Assembly: GCA_039028615.1 (NCBI GenBank)
Contig: JBCCHT010000014.1
Coordinates: forward strand, 1-64,000
Direction: 5' to 3'
Length of the DNA: 64,000 nt
DNA from: Myxococcota bacterium
Lineage (GTDB): Bacteria > Myxococcota_A > Polyangia > Nannocystales > Nannocystaceae
The translations under genes and the position numbers were made by a program. The notes beneath the pieces are model-generated. The model had not been told where the DNA came from, ran no database searches, and saw only the letters and a list, made by a program, of their open reading frames with translations. This document shows, piece after piece, positions 1 to 24,585 of the stretch. The stretch's first letter is position 1; the number at the start of each line of letters is the position of its first letter.

Positions 1-3000
1 CATCGAGTCCAACGCGTCGGAAAGCCTATTCAACAACCAGCCTCGCTCGGCGTCGGACCAAGGCTGCTTCGTCACACCTTCGATGAGTTCCAAACGTGCT
101 TTGGCCCACCCCCTCCGTCTGAACGCCTCGCTCAGCGTGGCGACAGTCGCGCGTGCTTTGGCCCATAGCTCTGCTGCCAACGCCTGCTCGAGCAGCTCTC
201 GATGCGAGGCCTCGGGCGCCCCTTCGCTGCACACCTCATCCCAGTATTCGACGAGCACGGCCCGCCCTGCCTTCGACCACGGCGGCCCGTCGGTGCGGCG
301 CTCGACCACCTCTCGGACGAACGGGTGCACGCCCCACCGCTGCTCCTGCATGCTCGTCAACAGACCCCGTGACCGCAGGGCATCGGCGCCATCCCCCATA
401 CGTCGCACCACATCGAGCGGTACCGGCAGCCCAATGCCACAGCACTCGCCCAGCAGCACCAATGCCTCGGGCCGCTGGCGTTCCAACAAGGTCTCGAGCA
501 GCAAGTCGGCCCCCGCCCTTTCGGGCAGCCCCGCCAAGGCCGGCTCCAACACCTCGCGGCGAATCGTGTCGACGGAGCTGCCGGTCAGCGAAAGCCCGGT
601 CTGTTCCTCCCATCGCGCCGCCTGCTGTCCCACCAACTCGTTGGTCCACTCCACCGCACGTGGGTGGCCCTCCATTCGGCCGGAGACCAGCTCTTCGCGG
701 AGCACGGGCGGCAGCGCTTTCAACCAGCGGTGCCATCGCGTCATCCGCAGCATCTCGCCCTCCGAACAGGGCTCGATCGGGATCCACTTCCCCTCGGTCT
801 CGGCGGGCTGATAGCGGGTGGTCAACAACACGGTGGTGTCGGAGGGCACGGCTTCGCATATCGCCTGAAAGAACTCGGCCACCTCGGCCGAGCGCCACGG
901 CACCCGATCTCGAGCCCCGTCCATCGCCGCTCGCTCGACCTGCATGGTCTCACCGTTGTCGATGTACAAGACGCCTCCCCGGCCGACCGAGCGCACCAGC
1001 TGGGCGAGTGCCCGCCCGCGCGAGGCTGGCCCCTCGTCCCGCTCGATGGCGTCCAGCCGAGCACTCCAGTCCGCGGGGCACGAGGGATGCGCGAGCACGG
1101 TTTGGTTGACGAACTCGCGCAGTACCGAGAAAGGATCAGCGTGTAGCTGCTCCTGCCCGTCGAGGTGCTGCAGCGGGAGCATCAGCGCCCGGTCCTGCCA
1201 GCTCGGTCCCCCCTTGGTCTGCGTGTCGGTCAACAACACGCGCGCCACCTTCATCATCGTGGCCGTCTTGCCCAAGCCACCCAGGCCAAACAGCCCCAGA
1301 ACCCGCTCCCCTTTCCTGCGTTCCTGGCGAAGTCGCGCGAGCAGGCGTCGCCGACCGATGAAGCCGAGACCGAGGTCCTTCAGCCCGTAGAGTTTTTCGG
1401 CGCCCGGCTCGAGCAGGTGGCGCTCCAATTCCGGGGGCGGCGGCTGGTCCACGTCGACCAAGGGGACATTCGGTCCGCGGTGGTAGAGGCTCAGGAGCGT
1501 CCACGACAGCGGAAACCGAGCCCACCCCTTGCGGGTGTCGATGGGACGCTGGGTCCGTAGCCGGGCCTTGCGGACGGCATCGAGGGTGGAACCGGTTTCG
1601 GCCAGCCCCTCGAACAAGCGTCGGTCGACGGCCACCGCCAGCGGGTCCGGTACGGGGCCGAAGTAGCCGAGGATCTGGGGGATCCCCGCGCGGTGCAGGT
1701 CGGCGGCAATCGATGGTGAATCCGCTCCCGCCCCTCCCCACTCCCTCGCGCGATCGTCCTCGGAGGCAGGCTTGCCACTGCCGGCCCCGTAGCAACACGA
1801 CAACCAGATCGCCTCGGGCAGCTTGCCCATCGCGTCCCGCAGGGTCTCGAGCAGGCGTTTGGCAGGAACCTCGTCGGGTCCGCCGTCGTTGTTCTCGAAC
1901 ACCAGCTGCCCCGGGATGCCGTGACCAGCGAAGTGCAGCACGACCGCCGATTCGCCATCGACTTTGGACGCGCGGTCGACCGCTGATACGCGCTTGGCCG
2001 CTTCACGCAGGTCCTCGAGCGTTCCCATCTCCGTAAACAGCGCCTGGCCCTCGACCTCGAGCAACGCACGGGACATGCGATAGCTGGCTTCTTCGAGGTT
2101 GAGCTCCGGCAAACCGGGGCCCTTGGGGGCCGCAACGTGGGCAACCACCGACAACCTTGGAAGGGTCCCACGGCGGTTCTGGTCCTCGGTCAACCCCGGT
2201 ACGACTGCCTCCCGCACGATGTGCACCTCCCCTCGGGCCACGGGGAAACGGTCGCCCAGCATCAGCAGCTCCCACGGCAGCACCAAAGCGTTGTTGGCCG
2301 CCTTGTCGTCACCGTGGACCTGAATTCGCACCAGAGCCGCGTCCTGCCCGGCGGATCTGGCCGCCAGCGCCTGGAGTACCTCGAGCCCCGCGGGCGGCAA
2401 CAACTCGGTGAGCGCCTGGCCGACGGATTTCGCCAGCTGCTGCATCTGGGACTCCACCGCCACGCTGCTCTGGTCGACATAGGCACCGCGTTCGTCACAG
2501 GGCAGTCCCTGCCCCGCACACTTCCGCAAGAGAGTCAGCATCTCTTTCAAATCGGGCGGGTCGACGTCGTGTTCATGGCCAGCGGCTTCGATCCGCCACC
2601 GCGCCTCTTCGGCGTGAATCGTGATGCAAAGCTCCCCCTCGCTCTGCTCGCGCTCGGCGACCGCCTCGGCTGCGGCGGCCTGGAAGACGCGCGGCAACAT
2701 CTCGACCGAGGGCAGCTCCAGAACTTGCAGCACATCCCCGTAGCGCTCGCGTGCGGTCCGACCGTCGTGCAGCGGCTCGTCCAGCGCTTCGGCTTCTCCC
2801 GGACTCATGAGCGCCACCCACGTGTTGAGTTCCTCGCGTTGCGCCTCAGTGAGCCCATCCACCCACTCGAGCAAGCGCGGGTCGAGCATCGAGCATCCCA
2901 CGAACAACACTGGATGCCTGGCCAGCAGCAGGTCGAGCTGGCCTTTCAGGAAGCGATAGCGATCTTCGAACGGGGTTTGGCCCTCGGAGGTCAGCACGAT

Positions 3001-3507
3001 CTCCGACCAGTCGGTCATGTCGCCGTAGATCGACAAGTACCAGCACCCTTGCCCCGGGCGCTTCAAGTTGCGCTCGAGAGAGCTGTGGGTATGCGGAGCG
3101 CGAAGCTCCTGCATGGCTCGGCGCAGCAGCAGGTCGTAGTTGGTGTCGACAATGAACGGGAAGGTCTGCGCCCAAGCCAGGCTGGCCAAGTGGTGATGCA
3201 GCGGCCCGGGCTGCGAGTCCTGGCCGTCGGGTCGCAGGCGGTGCTCGAGGTAGCTGCGAAGCTCGCTCTTTCGGTAGATCCGCTGCTCCAGCCCCCGCTC
3301 GAATGCCGCATACGGCTCCTCGACCTCCGGCATCTTCTTCCAGCCGATCGGCGCTTCGCGCATTCCCTCGGCCAGCTGCCGCAGCGTGGGCAAGGGCGGG
3401 TTAGCTTGGCCACTCACGCCCTCGCCGATCCACAGCGTGGGTTTTCGGCCTAGCTGGCGCTCGAGGACTTCGAGGAGATGGGGAGGGAGCTTCTCGGAGG
3501 CGACCAT
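1..3507 (-). CDS. SIR2-like (degenerate)-CHAT-STAND NTPase(-TPR) NLR-like protein, 3' end outside window; paralogue of 10495..14982
   Basis: Not in the ORF track because the frame is open to the left edge. Manual translation from ATG 3507 gives MVASEKLPPHLLEVLERQLGRKPTLWIGEGVSG...DTNYD...LSIYGD...HFAGHG...WLSCCYG...GLGGLGKT...VLYIDNGE...SDALDSM, colinear with 10495..14982. Confidence 0.93.
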   Translation of the reverse strand, partial: MVASEKLPPHLLEVLERQLGRKPTLWIGEGVSGQANPPLPTLRQLAEGMREAPIGWKKMPEVEEPYAAFERGLEQRIYRKSELRSYLEHRLRPDGQDSQPGPLHHHLASLAWAQTFPFIVDTNYDLLLRRAMQELRAPHTHSSLERNLKRPGQGCWYLSIYGDMTDWSEIVLTSEGQTPFEDRYRFLKGQLDLLLARHPVLFVGCSMLDPRLLEWVDGLTEAQREELNTWVALMSPGEAEALDEPLHDGRTARERYGDVLQVLELPSVEMLPRVFQAAAAEAVAEREQSEGELCITIHAEEARWRIEAAGHEHDVDPPDLKEMLTLLRKCAGQGLPCDERGAYVDQSSVAVESQMQQLAKSVGQALTELLPPAGLEVLQALAARSAGQDAALVRIQVHGDDKAANNALVLPWELLMLGDRFPVARGEVHIVREAVVPGLTEDQNRRGTLPRLSVVAHVAAPKGPGLPELNLEEASYRMSRALLEVEGQALFTEMGTLEDLREAAKRVSAVDRASKVDGESAVVLHFAGHGIPGQLVFENNDGGPDEVPAKRLLETLRDAMGKLPEAIWLSCCYGAGSGKPASEDDRAREWGGAGADSPSIAADLHRAGIPQILGYFGPVPDPLAVAVDRRLFEGLAETGSTLDAVRKARLRTQRPIDTRKGWARFPLSWTLLSLYHRGPNVPLVDVDQPPPPELERHLLEPGAEKLYGLKDLGLGFIGRRRLLARLRQERRKGERVLGLFGLGGLGKTATMMKVARVLLTDTQTKGGPSWQDRALMLPLQHLDGQEQLHADPFSVLREFVNQTVLAHPSCPADWSARLDAIERDEGPASRGRALAQLVRSVGRGGVLYIDNGETMQVERAAMDGARDRVPWRSAEVAEFFQAICEAVPSDTTVLLTTRYQPAETEGKWIPIEPCSEGEMLRMTRWHRWLKALPPVLREELVSGRMEGHPRAVEWTNELVGQQAARWEEQTGLSLTGSSVDTIRREVLEPALAGLPERAGADLLLETLLERQRPEALVLLGECCGIGLPVPLDVVRRMGDGADALRSRGLLTSMQEQRWGVHPFVREVVERRTDGPPWSKAGRAVLVEYWDEVCSEGAPEASHRELLEQALAAELWAKARATVATLSEAFRRRGWAKARLELIEGVTKQPWSDAERGWLLNRLSDALDSM

Positions 3508-3516
3508 CGACCCCGA

Positions 3517-3544
3517 TATGCGACGGCGTGCTCGGAATGATCTG
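3517..3544 (-). promoter_or_regulatory. CAGATCATT-N15-CATA putative ECF promoter, copy 1 (upstream of left NLR-like gene)
   Basis: AATGATCTG at 3536-3544 and TATG at 3517-3520 with a 15-nt spacer; the same motif occurs three more times in this locus. Confidence 0.65.
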
Positions 3545-3564
3545 CCGATTCCGAGATTTCTTGC

Positions 3565-5427
3565 TCATTTCTGCAGCAAGAAGCGCCGCCTCAGCATCGT
3601 GATCTTCGCCCCTGACGATCGATATCGGCGCTGTCGGTCCGCAAGGGGTGCGCCAGGGTCGTCAGGCTCCGCCGTGCTCAGGAGCGAGAAGGTGAGCGGC
3701 CGATTGCTCACCACCGCGACGAGTTCTTCGACGCGCTGGGTTCCACTCGCGGTCTCTGGCCATCCGAAACGAAGCGGGGACCGTGGTGTGCCGACGCGAA
3801 GCGAGGGCGAATCACGGGTGAGCGTCGCGCCACCGTTCGCCAGGCCGCCACCGAGGATCGAAATGCCACGATCGGCCCGAATCCGAAACACCCCTGCATG
3901 AGATGGCCAGCCTCGCTCGCGATCGACGACCTCGATCCACAACGGCGTATCCGACGTGACCCGAGGATTGCCACGTGGCCATTGGGCCTCGTCGTCGCCG
4001 TTCCAGGTGCCCCAGCGAAGGTCGAAGTGCCCATCTCGCCAGCTAGGCACGGTTCGTTCTACTGCCAACCATCCATCGACTACCGCAAGCGTCTCGGCCC
4101 AGCGAAGCCACGTGTCGACCTCGTCATCGGAGGTTCGAGCCAGTGCTTCGCCCCACGCATCGCGCACGACCACGTCCGAGTTCTCGAGTGCGAGGCCCAT
4201 GGGGCTCTTCTGCGGTCGATTTCGAGACCGCGATCCGAGCTCTCGAACGCAACTGACTTTGCCCTCGAGTCCGCTTCGTACTCGGGCTCGGCACTCGGCA
4301 TCGCCTCCCCAGAGCTCCACGGCCATCGTTCGCGCCAGGTTTCGGCGTGCGGCCCAAGCAAACTCCTGCTCCTCCAGGAGGTCTGCCCCGCCGGCTTCGA
4401 CCCGCACGCCAAGGGTGCCTTCGTGCTCGACTACCGAGCCCTGCACCGTGGGCGGCAGTGCGAGCGACCCCGTCAATGCGACCCGCTGTGCTGCCCTCCA
4501 ACCCGACGCCTCGGCCATCTCCGGGATCCACACGTCGCCCTGCCGAGCACACGGAGTCCATCCGCGAGGCCGCGCAATCCGAAGCCCGGTGCGAGGTACG
4601 ACATCGCATGGGCCACTGGTCGCCGGAGACTGTGTCTTGCGGTCCCACCTCGCCCTGACCCGATCCATCACCGCCCACCACGGCTCCTCACCGTGTGCGG
4701 TCAGCATGTCGACCAGCGCGTGCGTGAACAGTCCGACCTCGCCGCTTCGCCGCCCGCCAGCGACTTCGTCGCGCCCCGCAGCCATGACCCAGGACACTCC
4801 AGCCGAATGCTGTCCTGGCACCGTACTTCGCTCGTACCAGCTCGCGATGTGAGCCAGGAGCTCGGACTGAGTTTCCTTGGACTCGGGCCACGCGAACGGC
4901 ATGCCCGCCGCGTGGCAACAATCCAATACGATCGAGACGTGCGACGCGGTCGGCGAGTCCAGCTGCGCCGCGGTCGAGAGTTCATCGGCCCCAACGCGTT
5001 CGGCCAAGGCCTCGAGCCATGCCACTAGTTCGTCCGCGATGATGAACCGCTGCTCTGGCGTCAGGTCGTCTCGTCTCGCGTCCATCGTCGTCAACGTCGA
5101 AACAACCTCATTGCCTTCTTCGGTCTCCTGCGTCACTTGGAGACCGTGCCCCGCGTAGTACACGAGCACCCGATCCCCACCGCGAACATCGGCTTGCATC
5201 GAGTCAAACGCCTCGCTGATGGCAGCCTTGCTGGCGCAGCCCCAGTGCTGGACTGTTTCGTAGTTTGAGCCGAGCCAGCCGGCCATTCGCGCCAAGCACC
5301 CCGCTACGCCCCCGAGTTCGTCGAGCGGCACGCCGATGAGCAACGCATGCGCGCGAGATTCGGCGTCGCCAACCGTACGAAGCCAGCGCACCTCGTCGCC
5401 CGATCCCGAGGCCTGCTCCTCGGTCAC
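3565..5427 (-). CDS. Caspase-family (peptidase C14/metacaspase) protein with C-terminal beta-rich (DUF4384-like) region
   Basis: HALLIGV, YYAGHG (His), VLDCCHA (Cys), GLFTHAL motifs. The GTG start at 5427 overlaps the upstream TGA (GTGA). Confidence 0.88.
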   Translation of the reverse strand: MTEEQASGSGDEVRWLRTVGDAESRAHALLIGVPLDELGGVAGCLARMAGWLGSNYETVQHWGCASKAAISEAFDSMQADVRGGDRVLVYYAGHGLQVTQETEEGNEVVSTLTTMDARRDDLTPEQRFIIADELVAWLEALAERVGADELSTAAQLDSPTASHVSIVLDCCHAAGMPFAWPESKETQSELLAHIASWYERSTVPGQHSAGVSWVMAAGRDEVAGGRRSGEVGLFTHALVDMLTAHGEEPWWAVMDRVRARWDRKTQSPATSGPCDVVPRTGLRIARPRGWTPCARQGDVWIPEMAEASGWRAAQRVALTGSLALPPTVQGSVVEHEGTLGVRVEAGGADLLEEQEFAWAARRNLARTMAVELWGGDAECRARVRSGLEGKVSCVRELGSRSRNRPQKSPMGLALENSDVVVRDAWGEALARTSDDEVDTWLRWAETLAVVDGWLAVERTVPSWRDGHFDLRWGTWNGDDEAQWPRGNPRVTSDTPLWIEVVDRERGWPSHAGVFRIRADRGISILGGGLANGGATLTRDSPSLRVGTPRSPLRFGWPETASGTQRVEELVAVVSNRPLTFSLLSTAEPDDPGAPLADRQRRYRSSGAKITMLRRRFLLQK

Positions 5428-5801
5428 GGAGGCCCCCCCGCACCTTCGTCGAGTACTCGAAAGTAGCCACCGCCGCGTGGTGTGGGACCAGAGTTGTTGG
5501 TGTTGTGAACCTCGACGACAAACTCGGTCCCATGGGTGTACGGAGTGGACTCTTGGTGCGCCCCACCAATGTCGCTCCATTGGTCGAACGACTCGCCGCA
5601 TTCGTCCACAGCGTGGACCTCGGTAATCGTCGCGTGCACTGCCGTTGTTTGGCCCTTGATCTTGAATACGGCGGTCTGCCCCTCCGACGCCTTCACCTTC
5701 ACGTGGTGCCCTCGGGGATCCGCAGTCGCGCCTGCAACCGACGTCATCGTCACACCGTCGACATCGATGTCGACCTCAATTTCCACGATCTTCTTGCTCA
5801 T
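5424..5801 (-). CDS. Small beta-rich hypothetical protein (125 aa), translationally coupled to the caspase
   Basis: ORF MSKKIVEIEVDIDV... with AAGGA upstream; its stop overlaps the caspase start. Confidence 0.7.
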   Translation of the reverse strand: MSKKIVEIEVDIDVDGVTMTSVAGATADPRGHHVKVKASEGQTAVFKIKGQTTAVHATITEVHAVDECGESFDQWSDIGGAHQESTPYTHGTEFVVEVHNTNNSGPTPRGGGYFRVLDEGAGGPP

Positions 5802-5866
5802 CTCACTACGTCCTTTCATCCGGCGCCACTGGCCCGGTACTGTCACTACTGGTTTTCGATCGGGGT

Positions 5867-5883
5867 CAGCCTCGTCGAGGCTG
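5867..5883. terminator. Palindrome/stem-loop downstream of the kinase gene
   Basis: CAGCCTCG-T-CGAGGCTG inverted repeat just after the kinase stop; no clear U-tract. Confidence 0.3.
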
Positions 5884-5896
5884 CCCCGTGTTCACT

Positions 5897-8800
5897 TCAA
5901 CATCCTCGATCGATCCACGTCGCCATCTCTTCAAGCAAGGGTTCGTATCCCTCGTCGTCGAGTCCAGCGAAGAAGTCACGGGCATCCCGGGCACCCCGGA
6001 GGGCTTGCTCGGGCTCGGTCGAACACGAGGCCTGCGCCAACCACCACCGCGCATGTGCTAGCCGTTCGGGGTTGTCCCCGCTTTCGGTCCACTGCTCGAC
6101 CGCGGGCTGAAGCGCCACGATAGCCTCGGCATCGCGCCCGAGCTTCACCAGGGTCTCACCCCATCCCAACGACATCTCAGGGAAGTACGGGTGCGTTCGG
6201 AGGGCCGGGTCTGCGAGGAACGGCGGCACCGCTTGCTGATACAGGAGGTCTGCGCTGCGAAGATCGCCACGCCGAACGTGCGCTTGAGCGAGCTGACCAC
6301 GACCGATGTTGATGCTGACCTCGTCCGCCTCGCCCGAGCCCACTTGAAGCGCCAGCGCTCGCTCGAGCACGGGAACGGCCTGCTCGAACTGCCCCGCGTC
6401 CATGTGCACCACACCGATGGCCTCCAGCGCCCCCAGCCGACGCATATCGTCTCGACCATGGCGCTGGATCAGAATCTCGTCCGCGACGGTAGCGTGTTGC
6501 AGCGCAGCCTCGAACTTCCGCTGTAGATCCAAGACGCGAACCATCGCGATGTGCAGGCGAGCGACCCGGTCACTCCGCGGGCCCATCCCCGCTTCGGCAA
6601 GCTCCAGCGCCCGGCTGAGTTCTCGCTCCGAGGCCTCGAGGTCTCCTTTCTCGAGGTATCGGTAGCTCAGGTTGGCGTGCACTTTGTAGAGCGTCGGATG
6701 CTCGGCCCACAGCGCCGACGCCCAGAGTTTTTGGGCCGCCCGCAACGTCTCGATGGCGGCATCCGTGCGGCCGAGCCGAGCCTCGGAGGTACTCGAGTTG
6801 AGCATGGCGTGCGCCACCGCCAAGGGCATGGCCGGCTCGACTTCCGAGCGGATCGCGATCGCCTGACCAAAGAGTTCGAGTGCTCGTTCGTGCTCGCCGT
6901 TGCGCTGGAGCACCAAGGCACGGCTGTTGAGGGCCTCGGCCCGGCGCGCCCCGTCGATGCCCATGCGCTCGACCTTCTCGAGGGCGACCTGCGACGCCCG
7001 GCCGGCCTCCGCCGTGGACCCGTGCAGGTCGAGCGCGTGCGCCTTGGCCCACAACGCGAGCGCCTCCGAGCCGAGCCCGTCGCAACCGAGCGTCTCGGCC
7101 TGCGAGCGCGCGGCATCCAGCTGCTCACGAGCAAGATCGAGCCGCTGCGCCTCGAGAGCCAATCGCCCCCGAACGAGTCGAAGCCGGGCCCGAAGCGGCG
7201 CGAGAGCGTCCCCCTGTGCCTGCTCCAACGCCTTCGCGATCGAGGTCAGCGCTTCGTCGAACTGTCCTCCCACGGCAGCGGCGACCGCTCGATGTTCGAG
7301 GGCCTGCACCTGCTGCAACTGGGAAGTCGGCGCCAGTAGGGCCTCCGTCTGTTCGCACGCATCTCGCGGTCCCTCATCGCGCATCCGTTGAAGGGGCCCG
7401 ATGAGGCGCACGGGGACGGCAGACAGATCGCGGTCCGCGTCGATGTCCGCCAACGAGTCTACGATCCGGCGCAACGCATCGTGATCCCCGTGAAGGCTCG
7501 CGAGCTCCGATCGGCGAACAGCAGAGGACTCGTCTGCCGCACACACTCGCTCGAGTCTCAGATCGAGCGCCGCGGTCGTTTCCTCGAGCATGACGTCCAC
7601 CGCATCGAAGGTCGGTTCGGCCTCGGTCGAACCGGTCGCGAGGAACTCGGCGCGTACAGACTCGCGGGCTTCGCTTCCCCACAGGGATCGGGCGGAGTGC
7701 AGGTCATCGCATAGCCCGGGCGATGCACTCGATGACATCAGCATCGCGCTGAGACCGGCCGCCACGACCCCGCCCGGCAGCAGCACGAGCGGCCACCGAC
7801 GACGAGGGGAGCGCACAGCTGCCAGCGCTCGCAACAGCTCGGCCATGTCGCCATAGCGACGGGAAGGATCGTGCTGCAAGCCGCGGGCGAGCACCTGAAC
7901 CATCCCGCGGGGTACCGAAGGAGCCGAACGCCCGCGAACGTGCCGCCGACGCATCGGCATGGCATCGGTGGCCGCGATCGCGCCCGAGGCCGCCGACTCG
8001 ACCTCTCGCCCAAACGGAGGCGTGGCCTGCTGGTCCGACTCTAGAGATTGGGGCCGCGTGAGCGACAACGGCGGGCGCCCTCCATAGATGGCCTCGAACA
8101 GGGTCACGCAGAAGCTGAACTGGTCACTGCGAGCATCCGCCGTCCCTCGCACATGCTCCGGCGCCATGTAGCCCACCGTCCCGGGCGCACCGTGGGCCCG
8201 CGTCGAATCCTCGGCCAGGCTCACGGGGGCACCCGACTGCACGATCGCAATCCCGAGGTCTACGAGCTTGGATCGCCGCCCCCGGGTAATGACGATGTTG
8301 TGCGGCTTGACGTCGCGATGGACGACCTCGGCCTCGTGCAACGCGGCCAATCCCTCGCCGATGGGGGTGAGCACGTCGACCACCGTCTTCCAGTCGCGCG
8401 GCTCCCCGTCGAGCCACTCGTGCAGAGGAACGCCGTCGACCAGCTCCATCACCAAGAAGGGATGGCCCGTCTCGTCCTCGCCCACCTCGTGCACGGTGAC
8501 CACATTGGGATGCGAGACGCGGGCGAGCGCTTGCCCTTCGCGGAGCAGCTGCTCCTTGCGCTGCCCCGCGGCCACCGCCAAGCGCTTGAGCGCGACCTCT
8601 CGGTCGAGCGTCGGATCTTCCGCGACGTACACCGCGCCCTGCCCCCCGGTACCGACCTGAGAGACGAGCCGGAATCGACCGATCATCATCAAGTCCGGGG
8701 CGCTGTCGCCAAACAGCGTGCGTGCACACTCGGCTCGAAGCCGCCGCATCTCCAGGTCCTCCGGGGGCAGTGCCGGGGGGGTTACATCTCGGGAAGCCAT
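5897..8800 (-). CDS. Membrane Ser/Thr protein kinase with C-terminal TPR sensor region
   Basis: GTGGQGAV, VALK, HPNVV, HRDVKPHN, DLG, GTVGYMAPE; TM segment WPLVLLPGGVVAAGLSAML; TPR-like helices. Start set at ATG 8800 because the longer ORF overlaps the sigma gene. Confidence 0.92.
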   Translation of the reverse strand: MASRDVTPPALPPEDLEMRRLRAECARTLFGDSAPDLMMIGRFRLVSQVGTGGQGAVYVAEDPTLDREVALKRLAVAAGQRKEQLLREGQALARVSHPNVVTVHEVGEDETGHPFLVMELVDGVPLHEWLDGEPRDWKTVVDVLTPIGEGLAALHEAEVVHRDVKPHNIVITRGRRSKLVDLGIAIVQSGAPVSLAEDSTRAHGAPGTVGYMAPEHVRGTADARSDQFSFCVTLFEAIYGGRPPLSLTRPQSLESDQQATPPFGREVESAASGAIAATDAMPMRRRHVRGRSAPSVPRGMVQVLARGLQHDPSRRYGDMAELLRALAAVRSPRRRWPLVLLPGGVVAAGLSAMLMSSSASPGLCDDLHSARSLWGSEARESVRAEFLATGSTEAEPTFDAVDVMLEETTAALDLRLERVCAADESSAVRRSELASLHGDHDALRRIVDSLADIDADRDLSAVPVRLIGPLQRMRDEGPRDACEQTEALLAPTSQLQQVQALEHRAVAAAVGGQFDEALTSIAKALEQAQGDALAPLRARLRLVRGRLALEAQRLDLAREQLDAARSQAETLGCDGLGSEALALWAKAHALDLHGSTAEAGRASQVALEKVERMGIDGARRAEALNSRALVLQRNGEHERALELFGQAIAIRSEVEPAMPLAVAHAMLNSSTSEARLGRTDAAIETLRAAQKLWASALWAEHPTLYKVHANLSYRYLEKGDLEASERELSRALELAEAGMGPRSDRVARLHIAMVRVLDLQRKFEAALQHATVADEILIQRHGRDDMRRLGALEAIGVVHMDAGQFEQAVPVLERALALQVGSGEADEVSINIGRGQLAQAHVRRGDLRSADLLYQQAVPPFLADPALRTHPYFPEMSLGWGETLVKLGRDAEAIVALQPAVEQWTESGDNPERLAHARWWLAQASCSTEPEQALRGARDARDFFAGLDDEGYEPLLEEMATWIDRGC

Positions 8801-8859
8801 GAGTTGCCGTTGTCCGTGCCCCCGTAGTGGGCCGCGCCCCTCGAATTGATCGCCCGATT

Positions 8860-9552
8860 CTACGAAGCGGCCGAAGATTTTTGGGACGGCGGTGGAGTAT
8901 CCGACTCGTCGGGCGCCATCTCGTCCGCGAGGGCCTCGACTTCGGACCACCACTGCCGCAGCAACGTCGTCGAAGTCCGCGTACTCCCCGGCTCGATGCG
9001 CTCCAGCGCCTCGAGCTCCTTCTCGAGCGCGGCCCGGGCCCGACGGAGCTGCCCCGCAATGGTGGCGCGAGACCGCCCGAGCAAATCTCCCACCTGGGTC
9101 TCGGTCATGCCCGCGAAGAACTTCAAGTAGAGCAGCAGCTGCGGATCGCAGACCGTAGGCTCCGGCTGCCGTGCGCCCAGGCGCCGCATGGCTCGCAAGA
9201 CCCCGCGGCGGTCTTCGTGCAGCGACGCGAGGTACTCGACATCGTCCTCGTGCACCGTGGGCTCGGCCGCCAGCGTCTCGGAGTCGTCCGTCACGGGGGC
9301 TCGCGCCCGCTTGTTGCGAAACGCAAACACTCGGCGACGGGCGATCGTGAACAGCAGGCCGCGACCGTGGTCGATGGTGCGCTCGGGCTTGGCCGCGAGC
9401 CACTCGAGGAGCTGTTCGAAGGTCTGCTGCAGGAGATCCCGGGCCTCGACCTTCGCCATGGGAAGCATGGCCCGAAAGAACGCCAACAACTCTTCGCTGT
9501 GCTGAACGAAGAGCTCGGCGGCCTGCGCACGGCGGTCGTCGTTCGGAGACAC
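8860..9552 (-). CDS. ECF sigma-70 factor 1 with C-terminal extension
   Basis: Region 2 (EARDLLQQTF...LLFTIARRR) and region 4 HTH (LKFFAGMTETQVGDLLGRSRATIAGQLRRAR). Start codon approximate (GTG 9552 or 9558). Confidence 0.87.
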   Translation of the reverse strand: MSPNDDRRAQAAELFVQHSEELLAFFRAMLPMAKVEARDLLQQTFEQLLEWLAAKPERTIDHGRGLLFTIARRRVFAFRNKRARAPVTDDSETLAAEPTVHEDDVEYLASLHEDRRGVLRAMRRLGARQPEPTVCDPQLLLYLKFFAGMTETQVGDLLGRSRATIAGQLRRARAALEKELEALERIEPGSTRTSTTLLRQWWSEVEALADEMAPDESDTPPPSQKSSAAS

Positions 9553-9611
9553 TGGCACGATTGTATCGCAAGGGTGACATGTCGGGCCGCGAAAACGAGG
9601 GGTCACGGGGG

Positions 9612-9720
9612 TATGCGTCGCCGGGCACGAAATGATCTGCGCGGCGGCGATTTTTTTCGGTGGCACCCAGACCCGAGAAAATTGCCGCCGCACAGATCAT
9701 TGTTCAGGCGGCCGCACATA
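9612..9720. promoter_or_regulatory. Back-to-back divergent promoters forming a ~30-bp-arm inverted repeat (motif copies 2 and 3)
   Basis: AATGATCTGCGCGGCGGCGATTTTTTTCGG (9631-9660) versus CCGAGAAAATTGCCGCCGCACAGATCATT (9673-9701). Each has CATA exactly 15 nt downstream in its own direction (9612-9615 and 9717-9720). Confidence 0.75.
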
Positions 9721-9735
9721 TCGGTAGTGCGCCCG

Positions 9736-10422
9736 ATGTCCGATCCCAGCCCCCTCGCTCGCCACGACCGGCTCGCCCGCCAGCTCTACGCGGCCCACAG
9801 TGAGCAGTTGCTCGCCTTCTTCGGCGCGGCTCACCGCGCGGGGCCCCTCGAGGCGGTGGACCTGCTGCAGCAGACGTTCGTGGAGTTGATGTCGACCCTG
9901 AAGCGACGGCCGGATCTCGAGCTTCGACATCCTCGGGCCTTCCTTTTCAAGATCGCGGTCCGTCAGCGCATGGCCGAGCTTGCCCAGGCGCGGCGGCAAC
10001 CGGGTATCGAGCCCGAGGTCTCGCCCGAGGGGCTACCCGCCGTGGCCGAGGCCGACGATCTGGAGTGGATTGCGATCCGGCACGGGGAGCATCGCCAGCT
10101 GTTTCGGGCCTTGAGGCACTTGTCGGCCGAGGACCGCTCGTCCGCGGAACGTGACCCCATGTTGCTGTATCTGCGTTTCTGGGCCGGATTGACCTTGGCC
10201 GAGGTTGCCGAGGTCCTGGAGATGACCCCCGCGGCCGTGGCCGGGCGGCTTCGACGGGCGTGTCGGCGGCTGAGAAGGCACTTGCGGGAGCTGGAGCGGG
10301 CTGGCGGTGGTCCCTCGACGTCCACCACGGTGCTCCGACGCTGGCAGGACGCCATCGCCCGGACCTCTCTGCATTCGTTGGCATCGAAGGGTCGCAACGA
10401 GGTTCCGAGCGGGGAACGGTAG
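9736..10422 (+). CDS. ECF sigma-70 factor 2, paralogue of 8860..9552
   Basis: 3' part of ORF 8827..10422: EAVDLLQQTF, FLFKIAVRQ, LRFWAGLTLAEVAEVLEMTPAAVAGRLRRA, and tail STSTTVLRRW. Confidence 0.87.
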   Translation: MSDPSPLARHDRLARQLYAAHSEQLLAFFGAAHRAGPLEAVDLLQQTFVELMSTLKRRPDLELRHPRAFLFKIAVRQRMAELAQARRQPGIEPEVSPEGLPAVAEADDLEWIAIRHGEHRQLFRALRHLSAEDRSSAERDPMLLYLRFWAGLTLAEVAEVLEMTPAAVAGRLRRACRRLRRHLRELERAGGGPSTSTTVLRRWQDAIARTSLHSLASKGRNEVPSGER

Positions 10423-10458
10423 CCGCGAGACGGGTGAGCGAGAAAAACTCGACGACGG

Positions 10459-10486
10459 CAGATCATTTCGAACGCGCCGCCGCATA
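10459..10486 (+). promoter_or_regulatory. CAGATCATT-N15-CATA putative ECF promoter, copy 4 (upstream of right NLR-like gene)
   Basis: CAGATCATT 10459-10467, CATA 10483-10486, ATG at 10495. Confidence 0.65.
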
Positions 10487-10494
10487 TCGGGTCG

Positions 10495-13400
10495 ATGGTC
10501 GCCGCAGAGACTCTCCCCTCCGACATTCTCGACGTTCTCGAGCGCGTGCTCGGCCGCAATCCCACGCTTTGGATCGGCGCGGGTGTCAGTGCTCAGGCCG
10601 CCCCTCCCCTGCCCACGCTGTGGCGGCTGGCCGAGGGGTTGCGGGAGGCGCCCATCGGCTGGAAGAAGATGCCCGAGTTCGATGACCCCTATGCCGCGTT
10701 CGATGAGGGGCTGAAACAGCGGATCTTCCGAAAGAACGAGCTGCACACCTACCTCGAAAAGCGCCTGCGACCCGACGGCAAAGACCCGAAACCGGGGCCC
10801 TTGCATCACCACCTCGCCAGCTTGGCTTGGGCGCAAACGTTCCCGTTCATTGTCGACACCAACTACGACCTGCTGCTGCGACGGGCCATGCAAGAGATTC
10901 ACGCTCCGCATACCCACAGCACGCTGGAGCAGAACCTGACGCGGCCAGGCAAAGGGTGCTGGTATCTGTCGATCCATGGCGACGTGACCGACTGGTCGAA
11001 AGTTGTCCTGACCTCGGACAGCTACGATGGCTTCGACGATCGCTATCGGTACTTGAAAGGACAGCTCGACCTTCTGCTCGCCCAACACGCCGTGCTGTTC
11101 TTGGGCTGCTCGATGCTCGACCCGCACCTGCTGGATTGGCTCGACGGGCTCGGTCTGGAGCGGCGATCCAAGCTCAACACCTGGGTTGCGCTGGTGGGCC
11201 CGGGCGGGACCGATACGCTGAAGCAGCAGACCTACAAGGGGCAATCCGTGTTCGATTTCTACGGCGACCTGCTCCACGTGCTCGAATTGCCCTCGTTCAA
11301 GCTGCTGCCCCGGCTGTTTCAGTCGCTGGCCTCCTCCGCTGTGGCAACGCGCGAGGCGAACGAACGCAGGCTGACTATCGATATACACGCCGACTCGACG
11401 CCGTGGCGGATCGAGGCCGGAGGTGAAACCCACGAGGTCGACCCGCCCGACCTGGGAAAGGCGCTGGTGGGTTTGCGAACGTTCGCCGGAAAAGGACTGC
11501 CGTGTAACGACAAGGGAATCTGCATCGACCCGAGCGGCACAGTCCTGGAGAACGAAATGCAACAGCTGGCGCGATCTACTGGACAGACACTGACAGGACT
11601 CTTACCTCCCGCAGGGCTCGGGATCCTCGAGCGGATTGCCGGCAACGCAGCAAGTCGTGGTCCAGCTCTGGTCAGCGTACGTGTCCACGGCGAAGAAGCG
11701 AAGGCCAACAACGCACTGGTCCTCCCCTGGGAGCTGCTGATGCTTGGTAGCCGTTTCCCGGTCGCTCTCGGCGAGGTCCACATCGTGCGCGAGGCAGTAA
11801 CTCCCGGCGTGACCGAGGGCCTCGACCCCAACGAGGAACCGCCAGCGCTCTCGGTAGTCGCTCACGTCGCGGCTCCCAAAGCACCCAACTTGCCCGAACT
11901 CAACCTCGAAGAAGCCAGCTATCGCATGGCCCGAGCGCTGACCCGGATCGAGGGGCAAACCCTCTTCACGGAGATGGGGACCCTCGAGGATCTAGGCAAG
12001 GCGGTCCACCGCGTATCCCCCGTCGTGCTTCATTTCGCCGGTCATGGTCTACCTGGGAAGCTCGTCTTCGAGGATGAAGATTGTGCACCCCACGGCGTCA
12101 CCGCCAACGAGTTGCTCATCGCTCTACGTCTGCAGAAAACCACACTCCCGCGAGCAATCTGGCTTTCGTGTTGTTACGGTGCAGGCCCGGGAAAACCAGC
12201 AGCTGGGGACACTCCGAGTCGAGCACGAGAATGGGGCGTGATGGCGTCGGAGTCCCCATCGATCGCTGCTGATCTGCACCGTGCGGGGATACCTCAGATC
12301 CTCGGCTACTTCGGACCAGTGCCCGACCCGCTCGCGGTGGAAGTCGACCGGCATTTGTTCGAGGGACTCGCTGAAACCGGCTACACCCTCGAAGCGGTGC
12401 GACAGGCTCGACTGCGGACCCAACAGGCAATCGACACGGGCAAAGGCTGGGCCCGATTCCCTCTCGCGTGGACCTTGCTCAGCCTCTACCATCGCGGCCC
12501 CAATCTCCCGCTGATCGACGCTACAAAGACACTCCCAAAAGCAACTGCGGCGAGACTAGTGCCCGAGCCCGAAAAGGTCCAAGGCCTCGACGTACTGGGT
12601 TTCGGCTTCATCGGCCGTCGGCGTTTGCTCGCCCGGCTTCGGCGGGAATGGGGACAAAATCACCAACGAGTGCTGGGTCTATACGGCCTCGGCGGCCTCG
12701 GCAAGACGGCGACGATGATCCGGCTGTGCCGCGTGCTGCTATCGGGAGAGCTTGTCGAGAACGAGCAATGGCAGGACAAAGCCCTCGTGCTGCCCCTTCA
12801 ACTGGTCGACGGCCAGGAGCAACTTCGCACCGAGCCCTTTGCCGTGCTGCGCGAGCTCGTCGACACGATGGTCGAGGGGCATCCGCTGTGCCCCCCCGAC
12901 TGGAACGAACGCCTCGACGCGATCGAGCAAGCCGACGAACAGTCGTCTCGCGGCCGGGCCCTCGCCGAGTTGGTGCTGTCGGTGTGCAAGGGCGGCGTCT
13001 TGTACATCGACAACGGCGAGACGATGCAGGTCGAACGAACCGAGATGGACGGTGAGCTCGACAAGGTTCCCTGGCGCTCCGAAGAGGTTGCGGCGTTCTT
13101 TCGGACGGTGTGTGGCGCGCGTCTTCCCGAGACCACCGTGCTGCTGACCACGCGCTACCGTCCCGCGGACACGCCGGGATGGTGGGCGCCCATCGAGCCC
13201 TGCTCGAAGGACGAGATCTTTCGGATGACGCGGTGGCATCCGTGGCTGCGACGGCTGCCGCCCGTGCTTCGGGAAGAGCTGGTCAGCACTCGCCTGGCGG
13301 GCCATCCGCGGGCGGTGAAGTGGGCCAACGCGCTGGTGGAGGAACAGGCGCAGCGATGGCAGGAGGACTGCGGGCAGTCGCTGCGCGAAGACCTGCCCAG

Positions 13401-14982
13401 CGATCGGGTCCGCCGCGAAGTGCTGGAGCCCGCGCTGGAAGGGCTGCCCGACAAAGCGGCGGCCGACTTGCTGCTCGAGACCCTGCTCGAGCGGCAAACG
13501 CCCGAGGCGTTGGCGCTGCTGGGCGAGTGCTGTGGCATTGGCTTGCCGGTACCGTTTCAGGTGGTGCGGCGGATGGGGGATGGTGCCGATGCCTTGCGGT
13601 CACGAGGGTTGTTGACGAGCATGCAGGAGCAGCAGTGGGGCGTGCACCCGTTCGTCCGAGAGGTGGTCGAGCGGCGTATCGACGGGCCGCCATGGTCGAA
13701 GGCAGGGCGGGGCGTGCTCGTCGACTACTGGGAGAACGTGTGTAGTAAGGGGGCGCCCGAGGCCTCGCATCGAGAGCTGCTGGAGCAGGCGTTGGCAGCA
13801 GAGCTGTGGGCCAAGGCTCGAGCTACGGTCGCCACACTGGAGGAGGCGTTCAGACGGAGGGGGTGGGCCAAGGCACGCCTGGAACTCATCGAAGGAGTGA
13901 AAGAGCAGCCTTGGCCCGACCCCGAGCGGGACTGGTTGCTTTACACGCTGTCCGACGCGTTGGACTCGATGGGTCGGTACGACGAAGCTGAGCAGGCCAT
14001 TCGGCAGAGCCTGAAGCTGTCGGAACGCGTACACGGGACACGGGAGCACGGCTCGGTGGCGGCATCGCTGCATGGGCTGGCCAACGTCCTCGAGAATCTG
14101 GGGAGGTACGAGGAGGCGAAGGAGGTGTACGAGGAGTCCATCTCCATCCAGGAGGGTGTGTACGGGACACGGGAGCACGGCTCGGTGGCGAGTTCACTGC
14201 ATGGGCTCGCCAACGTCCTCGGTCGTCTGGGGAGGTACGAGGAGGCGAAGGAGGTGTACGAGGAGTCCATCTCCATCAAGGAGCATGTGTACGGGACACG
14301 GGAGCACGACTCGGTGGCGAGTTCACTGCATGGGCTCGCCAACGTCCTCGTTGTTCTGGGGAGGTACGAGGAGGCGAAGGAGGTGTACGAGGAGTCCATC
14401 TCCATCACGGAGCGTGTGTACGGGACACGGGAGCACGGCGAGGTGGCGGCATCGCTGAGTGGGCTGGCCAACGTCCTCGTTCGTCTGGGGAGGTACGAGG
14501 AGGCGGAGGAGGTGTACGAGGAGTCCATCTCCATCCTCGGGCGTGTGTACGGGACACGGGAGCACGGCTCGGTGGCGGCATCGCTGCATGGGCTCGCCAT
14601 CGTTCTTGTGCGGTTGGGGAGGTACAAAGTGGCGGAGCGAGCGTTCCGTGAGGCCCTCGCCATCCAGGAACGAGTGTTTGGCTCCCGCCGTACTCCCGCG
14701 AGCATTTTGACGCTCGTCGTGTTCGCCAAGGTTCTCGTGCAACACCAACGCCCGCACGACGCACTGCCGCTGGCCCGAGACGGGTGGGAAGGTGCGCTCG
14801 AGCACAACTCACTGCTCGACGCGGTTCAGGCCGGTCCCATCTATGCCGTCACGCTCGCCAGGGCAGGCCAAGAGGACGAAGCCCAGCAAGTCCGCGCGAC
14901 CGTCGTTCAGCTGCTTCAGCAACTGCCCGAAGGCCACCCGGTCCGTGTGCTCGTGGAAAAGGAGTTGCGTCTGCTGCAATGA
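10495..14982 (+). CDS. SIR2-CHAT-STAND (NB-ARC-like) NTPase-TPR NLR-like protein, 1495 aa
   Basis: SIR2 motifs WIGAGVS, DTNYD, SIHGD, LFLGCSMLD; CHAT motifs LPWELL, HFAGHG, LSCC; FIGRRR, Walker A GLGGLGKT, Walker B VLYIDNGE, LLTTR, GHPRAV; tandem TPRs. Confidence 0.95.
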   Translation: MVAAETLPSDILDVLERVLGRNPTLWIGAGVSAQAAPPLPTLWRLAEGLREAPIGWKKMPEFDDPYAAFDEGLKQRIFRKNELHTYLEKRLRPDGKDPKPGPLHHHLASLAWAQTFPFIVDTNYDLLLRRAMQEIHAPHTHSTLEQNLTRPGKGCWYLSIHGDVTDWSKVVLTSDSYDGFDDRYRYLKGQLDLLLAQHAVLFLGCSMLDPHLLDWLDGLGLERRSKLNTWVALVGPGGTDTLKQQTYKGQSVFDFYGDLLHVLELPSFKLLPRLFQSLASSAVATREANERRLTIDIHADSTPWRIEAGGETHEVDPPDLGKALVGLRTFAGKGLPCNDKGICIDPSGTVLENEMQQLARSTGQTLTGLLPPAGLGILERIAGNAASRGPALVSVRVHGEEAKANNALVLPWELLMLGSRFPVALGEVHIVREAVTPGVTEGLDPNEEPPALSVVAHVAAPKAPNLPELNLEEASYRMARALTRIEGQTLFTEMGTLEDLGKAVHRVSPVVLHFAGHGLPGKLVFEDEDCAPHGVTANELLIALRLQKTTLPRAIWLSCCYGAGPGKPAAGDTPSRAREWGVMASESPSIAADLHRAGIPQILGYFGPVPDPLAVEVDRHLFEGLAETGYTLEAVRQARLRTQQAIDTGKGWARFPLAWTLLSLYHRGPNLPLIDATKTLPKATAARLVPEPEKVQGLDVLGFGFIGRRRLLARLRREWGQNHQRVLGLYGLGGLGKTATMIRLCRVLLSGELVENEQWQDKALVLPLQLVDGQEQLRTEPFAVLRELVDTMVEGHPLCPPDWNERLDAIEQADEQSSRGRALAELVLSVCKGGVLYIDNGETMQVERTEMDGELDKVPWRSEEVAAFFRTVCGARLPETTVLLTTRYRPADTPGWWAPIEPCSKDEIFRMTRWHPWLRRLPPVLREELVSTRLAGHPRAVKWANALVEEQAQRWQEDCGQSLREDLPSDRVRREVLEPALEGLPDKAAADLLLETLLERQTPEALALLGECCGIGLPVPFQVVRRMGDGADALRSRGLLTSMQEQQWGVHPFVREVVERRIDGPPWSKAGRGVLVDYWENVCSKGAPEASHRELLEQALAAELWAKARATVATLEEAFRRRGWAKARLELIEGVKEQPWPDPERDWLLYTLSDALDSMGRYDEAEQAIRQSLKLSERVHGTREHGSVAASLHGLANVLENLGRYEEAKEVYEESISIQEGVYGTREHGSVASSLHGLANVLGRLGRYEEAKEVYEESISIKEHVYGTREHDSVASSLHGLANVLVVLGRYEEAKEVYEESISITERVYGTREHGEVAASLSGLANVLVRLGRYEEAEEVYEESISILGRVYGTREHGSVAASLHGLAIVLVRLGRYKVAERAFREALAIQERVFGSRRTPASILTLVVFAKVLVQHQRPHDALPLARDGWEGALEHNSLLDAVQAGPIYAVTLARAGQEDEAQQVRATVVQLLQQLPEGHPVRVLVEKELRLLQ
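14030..14640 (+). repeat. Near-identical 129-bp coding tandem repeats (43-aa TPR units)
   Basis: Unit starts CTGGGGAGGTAC at 14098, 14227, 14356, 14485 and a variant at 14614. Confidence 0.95.
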
Positions 14983-15089: not shown

Positions 15090-16934
15090 GTGGTACGACG
15101 CGCGTTGATCGGATTGGCGTTGCTGGCGCCTGGATGCCAAGACGACGGAGCCAACGAGCAGCCTCCCGAAGGCAGCAGCTCGGGAACCACGGACGGTTCG
15201 ACGCCCATGTCGACCACCGAGGACGCAGTCGACTCGAGCGAGGGCGGAGAAACAACCGAAGGCCCCAGCGATCCGGGCGACCCGGTCATGCTGACCTGCC
15301 CCGAAAACCCGACCGGTCACGACCCCCTCGAACTCATCGGCACTGCGGAGGCCGGCGATGCATCGCAGTTCGTGGCAGTAGTCGCCACCGAGGAGCACGC
15401 CTTCGGCTGCGCAGAGCAAGGCGGACTCGTCGTCTGGAGCATCGTCGACCCAGCCGCACCCACGATGGTGCACGGCCCCACAGGCGACAGCTGCACGGCC
15501 CTCGGCCTGAGCGAAGACCAACTCGCCGTCGCCCGCGACGGCATGATCGAGTGGCTCGACGTCTCCGATCCGACCACGCCCGTCACCATCGCCAGCGGCC
15601 CCTTCGAGGCCCGCATCTACGACCTCGACGTCGACATCGAGACCAACACCATCCGAGCCGCCGCAGGCACCGAGGGCCTCATCAACTTCGCGGTCGAAGC
15701 CGATACCCTCGCCGAAACCAGCCGCTTCACGGACGCAGACTCGGACGCCCGCGCCCTGGTCCGCCACGAAGACCACCTCGTCGTCGCCGAAGGCACGACC
15801 GGCCTCCGCCTCTACGACCCCGCCGCCCCGAGCCTCGTCACCACCCTCCCCCTCGAAGGCACCGCCCTCGACGTCGCCCTCGACGGCAACCGAGCCTGGG
15901 TCGCCACCATCGAGGGCGCCTCAATCGCGGAGATCAACGGCGAGACCCTCACCGAAATCGGCACCCGAGCCACTCCCGGCCAAGCGCTCGGCATCACCGT
16001 GGGCGAAGGCTTCGCCGTCATCGCCGACTGGGAACTCATCAGCGGCATCAGTCGGCAGTGGCGGTCCGCCCCCGGCTTCGTCGCCGCCGAGCCCCTCCCC
16101 TCCGACACCGATCGCCCCCGCACCCGCGCCGTCACCCGAACCCCGGCCGGCCGCATCCTCGCCGCAGGCTGGGAGCAGCTATGGGTCCACGGTGCCGCGT
16201 GCCCGCCCGACGCCCCCTCGGTCTTCCCCGATCCGAGCTTCCTGCCCTTCCACGACGGCGAGGTTCAAAACGGCCAGACCACGCGCGTGCTGTCGATCCG
16301 CAACCGGGGCAACCGCGATCTCGTCGTCGAACAGATCATCCCGCCCGAGGGCGTGACGGTGACCGACGAGGAGGGCTTCGTGGTTGCGCAAGGCTCTGCG
16401 CAGGCGATCGAGGTCACCTACGATCCCGCCGCGGGCATGGTCGACGATCTCATCATCGTGAGCGACGACCCGGACCAACCGGAGATGCCGGTCGAGATCG
16501 CGGCCGGGATCTCTGGTGTCGCGATCGGCGATCCGATGGTCCCACTGCGGGCCGTGGACCTCGAAGGACGGGTCTGGACGGAGGCCGATATGGAGGGCCA
16601 GGTCGTCTTACTGGCGTACTTTGCCACCTGGTGAACGTCGTGCATCCAGGAGTTTCCTGGACTCGAGACCGACATCTGGCAGGAGTATCGCGACCAGGAC
16701 GTGCTGGTTTTGGCGATTGGACACGAGAACGTGCCCTTGATGCAGGCGTTTGCGGCCGACAACGGCAGCACCTTCCCCATCGTGGCCGAGGAATCGACGT
16801 ACGAGCGCTACATGGATCCGGGGCCGGGCAACTACTCGCTGGAGATCATCGCGGACCGCGAAGGGATCGTTCGCTTCGCGGCGCACGGCTCCTCGAACGG
16901 GCAGCTCATCTCGGAGATCATCCCCTGGCTATGA
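15090..16934 (+). CDS. Probable selenoprotein lipoprotein: LVIVD-like beta-propeller, Ig-like domain and TlpA/AhpC-like thioredoxin domain with UxxC (Sec at TGA 16632-16634)
   Basis: Lipobox LAPGC. ORFs 15090..16634 and 16701..16934 are in the same frame; read-through gives VVLLAYFATW-U-TSCIQEFPGL, the WCxxC redoxin motif position. A hairpin follows the TGA. Confidence 0.85.
16632..16661 (+). promoter_or_regulatory. Putative bacterial SECIS element
   Basis: TCCAGGA-GTT-TCCTGGA (16645-16661); the G-initiated apical loop begins 17 nt after the UGA. Confidence 0.7.
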
Positions 16935-17004
16935 CGGGGTGACGCTCGCATCGATCGGGCGTCCTTCGTACACTGGGCCACTCGTTTTCCGACAGGGCCC
17001 ACTC

Positions 17005-24570: not shown

Positions 24571-24585
24571 AGTAGGGCCACCCGG

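Follow-up and report, generated by a model that had tools for sequence, protein, structure and literature searches.

The window analysed here covers the opening 64 kb of contig C14 (JBCCHT010000014.1) from a genome of the family Nannocystaceae (phylum Myxococcota; genome G000, 12.3 Mb, 96.7% complete). It opens with a seven-gene locus in which two large NLR-like sensor proteins, NLR-A and NLR-B, enclose a C14 caspase, a 125-aa protein, a Ser/Thr kinase and two extracytoplasmic function (ECF) sigma factors (Table 1). NLR-A, the caspase, the small gene, the kinase and ECF1 run on the minus strand and ECF2 and NLR-B on the plus strand, as in an original prediction made from the DNA alone. Pfam and NCBIfam models bear out its domain calls for the caspase (Peptidase_C14), the kinase with its TPR region and both ECF sigma factors, and the length of the small open reading frame (ORF) also holds. 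SIR2_2 and CHAT match both large proteins and TPR matches NLR-B; the SIR2-CHAT-STAND-TPR architecture predicted for both sensors is thus borne out for NLR-B but only in part for NLR-A, which is truncated by the contig start ahead of its TPR region. Because contig C13 opens with a 250-aa TPR tail that is 70% identical to NLR-B, the NLR-A gene is probably whole and the break most likely arose in assembly, within the repeats; we infer that C13 and C14 join within NLR-A. The mirror symmetry originally proposed did not survive comparison of the two arms: the sensors are 69% identical, but the sigma factors only 36%, and three genes occur on the left arm alone. As far as these identities tell, the locus is not one mirror duplication and its symmetry is partial. 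Beyond the original prediction, the kinase carries a hydrophobic helix and four of the genes share an upstream motif.

The core and the Haliangium PCaspase module

A published module of Haliangium ochraceum comprises SAVED-CHAT, PCaspase, the small inhibitor PCi, the kinase PCk and the sigma factor PCc-sigma, and its core is tied to CRISPR/CBASS signalling (Steens et al., 10.1101/2023.06.23.546230). In vitro, SAVED-CHAT cleaves PCaspase but not the sigma factor or PCi, activated PCaspase cleaves the sigma factor, PCi and casein, and PCi inhibits PCaspase; the abortive phenotype needs both proteases, and SAVED-CHAT with PCaspase suffices for killing (10.1101/2023.06.23.546230). In the accessible part of that preprint, no PCi homologues are reported from elsewhere and the regulon of the sigma factor is left as a question.

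Three of the 20 SAVED regions fetched (L111, L122 and L127) hold SAVED-CHAT, sigma factor, small gene, kinase and caspase arranged as published, and the SAVED-CHAT protein of L127 scores 471 bits against PDB 8TL0. The profile of the window caspase family matches the caspases of these three loci with a probability of 99.9 (E = 5e-33, 529 columns), and the region beyond the catalytic domain matches at 95.9, with a reversed control at 0.13. For the small proteins, the profile match (20 and 8 rows) is of moderate strength (probability 90.3, E = 1.5e-6, 83 columns; best of 200 shuffled controls, 7.3), and two loci that score with both profiles bridge them. The window locus and the Haliangium module therefore resemble each other in grouping a CHAT protease, a C14 caspase, a small protein, a Ser/Thr kinase and an ECF sigma factor in one cluster, and in that the window caspase and small protein are homologous to those at syntenic SAVED-CHAT loci. 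They differ in that the window CHAT is fused to STAND-TPR rather than SAVED and the CHAT domains fall in different branches, and in that the window has two sensors, two sigma factors, an extra SIR2, another gene order and a caspase that a quick tree places in a clade of its own. SAVED was found in neither sensor, and PF18145 has no match in the 96.7% complete genome; although the locus would work like the PCaspase system, the lack of a SAVED sensor keeps it from strict membership. The earlier statement that the combination matches no named system accordingly stands for the sensor wiring but not for the core, which is the gene set of the published module. Judged from sequence, what is new is the CHAT initiator fused to a STAND-TPR sensor on a PCaspase-type core, the core itself being already known; no description of such an arrangement was found in the open-access literature, a scope that leaves out subscription journals and closed supplements.

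The GTG start of the caspase gene overlaps the stop codon of the small gene, and protein P0006, one of 28 matches in 1.84 billion representatives, is a natural small protein–caspase fusion. The nearest named caspase records are from Paraliomyxa miuraensis and from Nannocystaceae or other Myxococcota metagenome-assembled genomes; caspase matches occur in 18 of 73 family genomes and are full-length and strong in four of five congeners. A DUF4384-like match in the C-terminal part is a lead only. Searches of PDB sequences returned no PCaspase or PCi structure: nothing for the single caspase and only metacaspases for both caspase profiles, while the small family, which also has no Pfam family, gave a single weak match to a glycosidase. 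AlphaFold models of a window-type and a SAVED-locus small protein are both all-beta with a like strand order (pLDDT, the predicted local distance difference test, 84.7 and 78.8). SO1698, PixA and MakD are among the top fold matches of both at modest Z scores (5.7–8.3), the top matches of the two models being SO1698 (Z 6.5, root-mean-square deviation 3.4, 103 aligned) and MakD (Z 8.3, root-mean-square deviation 3.0, 106 aligned), which places the fold near DP-EP/PixA/MakD. The Atlas label DP-EP (0.92, carried by 62% of the cluster) is likewise a lead only. A CI-2-type inhibitor is absent from the listed fold matches of the models, and a chagasin-type cysteine protease inhibitor fold (Z 5.4–5.6) was given no weight, as it tied with many Ig-like domains. 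At five SAVED loci (L113, L116, L117, L118 and L120) a kinase, the small gene and a sigma-sized ORF adjoin SAVED proteins, and the 20 kb retrieved around each contain no caspase match; the small protein may thus also work where no caspase is encoded nearby.

Sigma factor, kinase and small gene recur beside congeneric caspases, adjoining CHAT proteins of varied build: two CHAT-STAND-TPR proteins at L021 and TIR-CHAT-PNP with TIR-EAD1 at L022, both with two sigma factors, CHAT-PNP at L023 and CHAT-STAND-TPR at L024. The window genome holds a second core copy with two CHAT-NTPase proteins and another CHAT protein (L025), and a third (contig C26, 131820–139117) with the gene order of the published module (caspase / kinase, small gene, sigma factor, CHAT), whose CHAT protein has a TIR-like tail, read by eye, and adjoins another TIR-like gene. 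These loci keep the core with differing CHAT proteins, which argues for a stable core whose CHAT sensor is swapped. A look for the neighbourhood in other myxobacterial genomes, suggested originally as a check, finds the core with CHAT, but in the congeners without the SIR2-CHAT-STAND-TPR sensor. All three PCaspase-type caspases of the window genome adjoin small gene, sigma factor, kinase and CHAT, and the C26 copy played no part in building the models of caspase and small protein.

Across 35 caspase loci (the window, L025, C26, five congeneric loci, four further loci, three SAVED regions and 20 further regions), CHAT lies within 7 kb in 29, an ECF sigma factor in 24, a kinase in 22 and the small gene in 15; all three core partners are present in 14, 12 of them also with CHAT, and 3% of random windows of the genome hold CHAT (from 25 matches). 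The four further loci were drawn from 38 caspase matches, of which five repeat congeneric loci and 29 weaker ones were omitted (one refetched, L171). Caspases of the same type at the family f12 loci (L157–L165, L168 and L170) adjoin proteins of ~800 aa that end in CHAT, some with TPR matches; these loci mostly lack kinase and small gene and form a reduced two-protease version. Phage-type integrases flank the L021 module on both sides (138–1598 and 18903–20000), which suggests a mobile island.

Table 1. Positions of the genes and sequence elements of the locus within the window.
Feature	Positions	Strand	Description
NLR-A	1..3507	-	degenerate SIR2 (E29, Y161)-CHAT (H529, C572)-STAND NTPase (K747, D850)-winged helix; 3' end off contig
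Candidate ECF promoter, NLR-A	3518..3542	-	GATCAWT-N13-CRCAT; ends 10 nt 5' of NLR-A start
PCaspase-type C14 caspase	3565..5427	-	620 aa; H94/C171; conserved C-terminal part
125-aa all-beta protein	5424..5801	-	PCi-position homologue; conserved C-terminal GGGxFxVxEEGGG
Hanks-type Ser/Thr kinase	5897..8800	-	967 aa; catalytic motifs intact; hydrophobic helix 338-356, then TPR; PCk counterpart
Weak fifth motif copy, kinase upstream	8823..8854	-	weight-matrix rank 7 genome-wide, near background
ECF sigma 1	8860..9558	-	~232 aa from an inferred start codon; TSTTxL..W extension at C terminus
Candidate ECF promoter, ECF1	9613..9637	-	GATCAWT-N13-CRCAT
Candidate ECF promoter, ECF2	9695..9719	+	GATCAWT-N13-CRCAT
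ECF sigma 2	9736..10422	+	228 aa; second lineage; same C-terminal extension as ECF1
Candidate ECF promoter, NLR-B	10461..10485	+	GATCAWT-N13-CRCAT; ends 9 nt 5' of NLR-B start
NLR-B	10495..14982	+	1495 aa; SIR2 (N123, H161 intact)-CHAT (H517, C560)-STAND (K737, D839)-TPR
TPR units of NLR-B	13969..14742	+	six 43-aa (129-nt) units, high internal identity, few fixed variable positions

Sensors, inverted pairs and local control

Both sensors have the CHAT His/Cys pair and what we take to be the Walker A, hhhhD-type Walker B, sensor-1, GxP and MHD-like motifs of a STAND protein, placed between N-terminal effector and C-terminal repeats in an NLR-like layout; Pfam gave only a weak nSTAND5 match for the NTPase. 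Avs and other STAND defence proteins share this plan of N-terminal effector, STAND NTPase and C-terminal TPR, but the window sensors differ from Avs in their two tandem effector domains, in a presumed target that is a second protease and in having their own sigma–kinase control. The PADLOC scan that the original prediction had named as a check for novelty returned no match to the Avs models of PADLOC 2.0 (2023), with whole proteins or the NTPase alone at E 0.1, later Avs types being outside that library. As in the protease-fused Avs, a fused protease would act on the product of a neighbouring gene; a 2025 preprint, in its accessible part, names PCaspase as one of the abundant modules and reports proteases that are fused to STAND but act on other targets (10.1101/2025.11.14.688446).

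The SIR2 domain of NLR-B aligns with that of DSR2 (E = 2.5e-6), so that N123 and H161 fall on DSR2 N133 and H171, and published excerpts record the use of DSR2 H171A to avoid toxicity. The likeness to the SIR2 NADases DSR2 and ThsA is restricted to this domain, and NLR-A departs from it with Y161 in place of H161 and GEG (E29) in place of GAG (A29). Among nine SIR2-bearing rows, the His is kept in eight and GAG in seven of the eight covering the first motif, the exception both times being NLR-A. With these replacements in its catalytic motifs, NLR-A probably has one live effector domain rather than two; by its residues the NLR-B SIR2 looks active and that of NLR-A dead. The claim of two effector domains per sensor is therefore right as to domain content, SIR2 and CHAT being present in both, but not as to the catalytic His of NLR-A. 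Faster decay of the whole NLR-A SIR2 domain was considered and rejected, its identity to five relatives being within 3 points of that of NLR-B. NAD depletion, placed by the original prediction within the circuit, is better described as an optional add-on, because congeneric core copies have CHAT without SIR2 and the NLR-A SIR2 looks dead.

Relatives of NLR-B were matched in seven of 73 family genomes and in none of the five congeners, with full-length matches in just two other genomes. The four-domain sensor is rare but not unique (11 other proteins among 7,999 candidates, SIR2 and CHAT both listed in 4/11), and a metagenome scan with NLR-B gave 83 pattern matches, none of them confirmed. One stand-alone SIR2-CHAT-STAND-TPR relative (L037:8698–13794) retains neither the CHAT His nor the SIR2 Asn, so a pattern in which such relatives preserve SIR2 at the expense of CHAT was rejected. 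Variation among the 43-aa repeats of NLR-B is confined to a few fixed positions; NLRs with high-identity repeats have been discussed, in the sources available, for multicellular bacteria and fungal non-self recognition, and the NLR-B repeats are alike. Elsewhere in the genome, a separate SIR2-NACHT-LRR protein adjoins a sigma factor and a kinase (contig C23, 111030–114735, L042).

In the window, L021 and L025, two paralogous CHAT-NTPase genes lie on opposite strands at both ends of the core, with identities of 69, 72 and 91% within pairs and 23–27% between pairs; since the pairs are so little alike, sensor pairing arose three times, each pair recruited and duplicated separately. Identity within pairs is patchy, reaching 91% in the winged-helix region of the window pair. 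Over the C-terminal half of the L021 pair it is 90–100% and includes an exact run of 337 nt, and in the L025 pair it is 99% where contig C88 breaks at both ends. This contig (L025:1–12096) carries the second core copy between the two CHAT-NTPase genes, together with the third CHAT protein, and breaks inside both paralogues. The patches are compatible with gene conversion or inversion across the inverted repeats; either event would bring N-terminal effectors together with other TPR arrays, although recent duplication with uneven constraint could explain part of the pattern.

The motif GATCAWT-N13-CRCAT occurs at four sites in the window, on the coding strand 9–54 nt 5' of NLR-A, ECF1, ECF2 and NLR-B; shuffled windows lead one to expect 0.01 sites, for a pattern written after the sites were seen. 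The genome has five exact matches, four of them at the locus, and because other spacer lengths also give 0–4 matches each, it is the clustering and not the total that carries the signal. In congener G046, three of four exact matches lie at the orthologous locus L021, one 5' of a sensor operon and the others 5' of the second sensor and of the second sigma factor; these sites were first picked with a looser pattern derived from the window. Two boxes 17 nt apart just 5' of sigma genes are in keeping with an ECF promoter under autoregulation, and the motif is a candidate promoter that the local sigma factors may read. The conserved gene neighbourhoods and this shared motif support the original view that the genes form one functional unit with a transcriptional loop of its own. 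A wider regulon was sought and not found, the sole other good weight-matrix site (C42) falling inside an ORF. Behind one L021 motif site and ahead of the first sensor lies a 138-aa ORF (2032–2445) with no Pfam match, whose start resembles by eye the N terminus of the L025 CHAT-NTPase proteins.

A hydrophobic helix precedes the TPR region in the window kinase and in all ten module kinases examined; given this helix, the kinase is predicted to span the membrane, its TPR part probably facing outward. Residues 63–764 match PADLOC model C3a189 (E = 5.5e-53), a label that we take to denote a type III CRISPR accessory cluster. ECF1 and ECF2 represent two older lineages, each nearer to sigma factors of other genomes than to its neighbour (ECF1 is 56% identical to one L021 sigma factor and ECF2 49% to the other). 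The Ser/Thr-rich C-terminal TSTTxL..W stretch recurs in all seven sigma factors of the ECF1/ECF2 clade and is a candidate kinase target. In ECF43-type sigma factors, by the part of the source available, a Ser/Thr motif replaces DAED in region 2.2; that phosphorylation motif is absent from the window sigma factors, which have EARD and EAVD there.

A CHAT domain with an ECF sigma factor in a defence setting also recalls type III-E Csx29/Csx30/CASP-sigma, and an ECF sigma factor in a defence setting recalls DdvA-DdvS of Myxococcus xanthus, in which DdvS drives its own defence island (PMC11506125). The window CHAT differs from both in being cytoplasmic and fused to STAND, and family scans of the seven genes matched no Cas7-11, Csx30, Csx31 or anti-sigma factor. 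The type III-E analogy drawn originally, in which CHAT frees a sigma factor, fits worse than CHAT cutting a second caspase.

A sigma-70 promoter search at the locus found none, and terminators were at chance level only. No type III CRISPR or CD-NTase gene was found among the scanned right-flank ORFs or in the single ORF scanned on the left flank, across the inferred contig join. Further along, the window encodes an alpha (eukaryotic-type) carbonic anhydrase domain (16750–17667) and a type VI secretion-type cluster (23167–40231) with VgrG-like, RHS (with DUF6531), OmpA-domain and peptidoglycan-binding proteins.

Proposed relay and alternatives

We consider the locus to be, with fair probability, an abortive defence module of the PCaspase type under the command of NLR-like sensors: it has the same five gene classes as the published module, and the CHAT dyad is intact in both sensors. 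A ligand, probably a phage or foreign protein, would bind the variable TPR array of either sensor and, as in the wider family, cause STAND to oligomerise. To judge by the motifs, clustering would activate CHAT as an initiator protease and in NLR-B would also switch on the SIR2 NADase as a second arm, NLR-A acting as a protease only. CHAT would then cleave and activate the adjoining caspase, as shown for the Haliangium proteins, and this broad executioner would arrest or kill the cell. The 125-aa protein, by its homology and its natural fusion, may be both inhibitor and substrate of the caspase and so set the threshold. The two sigma factors could read the motif promoters before themselves and both sensors in a priming loop, and the membrane kinase may control that loop from an outside signal. 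The sensor would be the exchangeable part, often an inverted paralogue pair trading sequence. Possible, but put forward only tentatively, is a fuller apoptosome-like relay of NLR sensor, fused CHAT initiator, executioner caspase and inhibitor under a receptor-kinase/twin-sigma loop, in which the inverted pair flips or converts to re-pair NADase-live and NADase-dead halves with variable TPR arrays.

Several findings weigh against the defence-module reading. The link to the Haliangium module runs through syntenic SAVED-CHAT loci and not through the Haliangium PCaspase, PCi, PCk and sigma sequences themselves. In a quick tree of 49 caspase rows, five of them proteins entered as outgroups, the window enzyme sits in its own supported clade of nine, and this clade, the SAVED-linked clade and the five outgroup rows (one named from a fungus) all fall in one polytomy. 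The small-protein match falls to a probability of 46 with only the three caspase-bearing SAVED rows, PCi was predicted to be CI-2-like (Steens et al.) whereas both models here are all-beta, and the sigma factors of window-type and SAVED loci are only 17–26% identical. The co-occurrence figures run too high, since the loci are related to one another, the models were built from them and three were picked through SAVED, and with 387 kinase and 188 ECF matches genome-wide the adjacency of kinases and sigma factors alone means little. The motif was not found at L022–L025. Finally, both full-length NLR-B relatives in the 73 family genomes lack a caspase or small gene in the fetched flanks, so SIR2-CHAT-STAND-TPR sensors can stand alone.

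That last observation also favours an alternative in which the sensors are stand-alone dual-effector Avs-like proteins, SIR2 killing by NAD depletion, CHAT freeing or processing the sigma factor directly and the caspase being secondary. The catalytic pair that NLR-B shares with DSR2 is consistent with it, but NLR-A has lost the SIR2 His and kept the CHAT dyad, other core copies have no SIR2, no Csx30/Csx31-like gene was matched and SAVED-CHAT in vitro cut PCaspase rather than the sigma factor or PCi (10.1101/2023.06.23.546230); we consider this alternative decidedly unlikely. Unlikely, too, is the use of the same wiring for multicellular life, in kin or non-self recognition, developmental lysis or the response to predators or competitors, with the kinase sensing cell contact. 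The helix of the module kinases, the fungal and multicellular settings in which high-identity TPR-repeat NLRs have been discussed and the lack of an Avs model match to the NTPase would all suit such a role; the SIR2, TIR and PNP partners, on the other hand, are typical immune effectors, the turnover of sensors among congeners and the L021 integrases fit a conflict system, and the homologous core is tied to CRISPR/CBASS signalling (10.1101/2023.06.23.546230).

We regard it as very unlikely that the small protein, instead of inhibiting the caspase, is itself the death effector, set free or opened when the caspase cuts it, in the manner of Pepco and EACC1. Pepco and EACC1 families match none of 20 members, and the Asp-Pro self-cleaving motif of DP-EP is not evident at the C terminus, although a small all-beta protein with a conserved glycine-rich C terminus would suit such a role and the fold neighbours SO1698 and PixA include self-processing or self-assembling proteins. 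Small protease-activated effectors beside STAND-fused proteases are described in the accessible literature, but PCi inhibited PCaspase, and SAVED-CHAT and PCaspase were enough for killing (10.1101/2023.06.23.546230). Least probable of the readings considered is chance accretion of independent sensors, caspase and sigma–kinase pair in a defence island. The abundance of kinases, ECF sigma factors and CHAT proteins in this genome (25 matches for the last) and the congeners that carry the core without a SIR2-CHAT-STAND-TPR sensor would allow it, but the motif precedes sigma factors and sensors in two species, CHAT adjoins the caspase in most loci counted, and small gene and caspase overlap at stop and start and are fused in P0006.

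If the defence-module reading is true, the PCaspase cascade would be a plug-in executioner for many initiators (SAVED-, STAND-, TPR-, TIR- and PNP-fused CHAT) and not only a CRISPR/CBASS accessory, and bacteria would have a chain of sensor, initiator and executioner like that of animal apoptosis. For the two questions raised by the Haliangium preprint, a small-protein family with a predicted fold is now outlined in answer to that of PCi, and the candidate promoter gives a testable local regulon for a related module in answer to that of the sigma factor. The repeated inverted sensor pairs suggest a route of diversification for bacterial NLRs.

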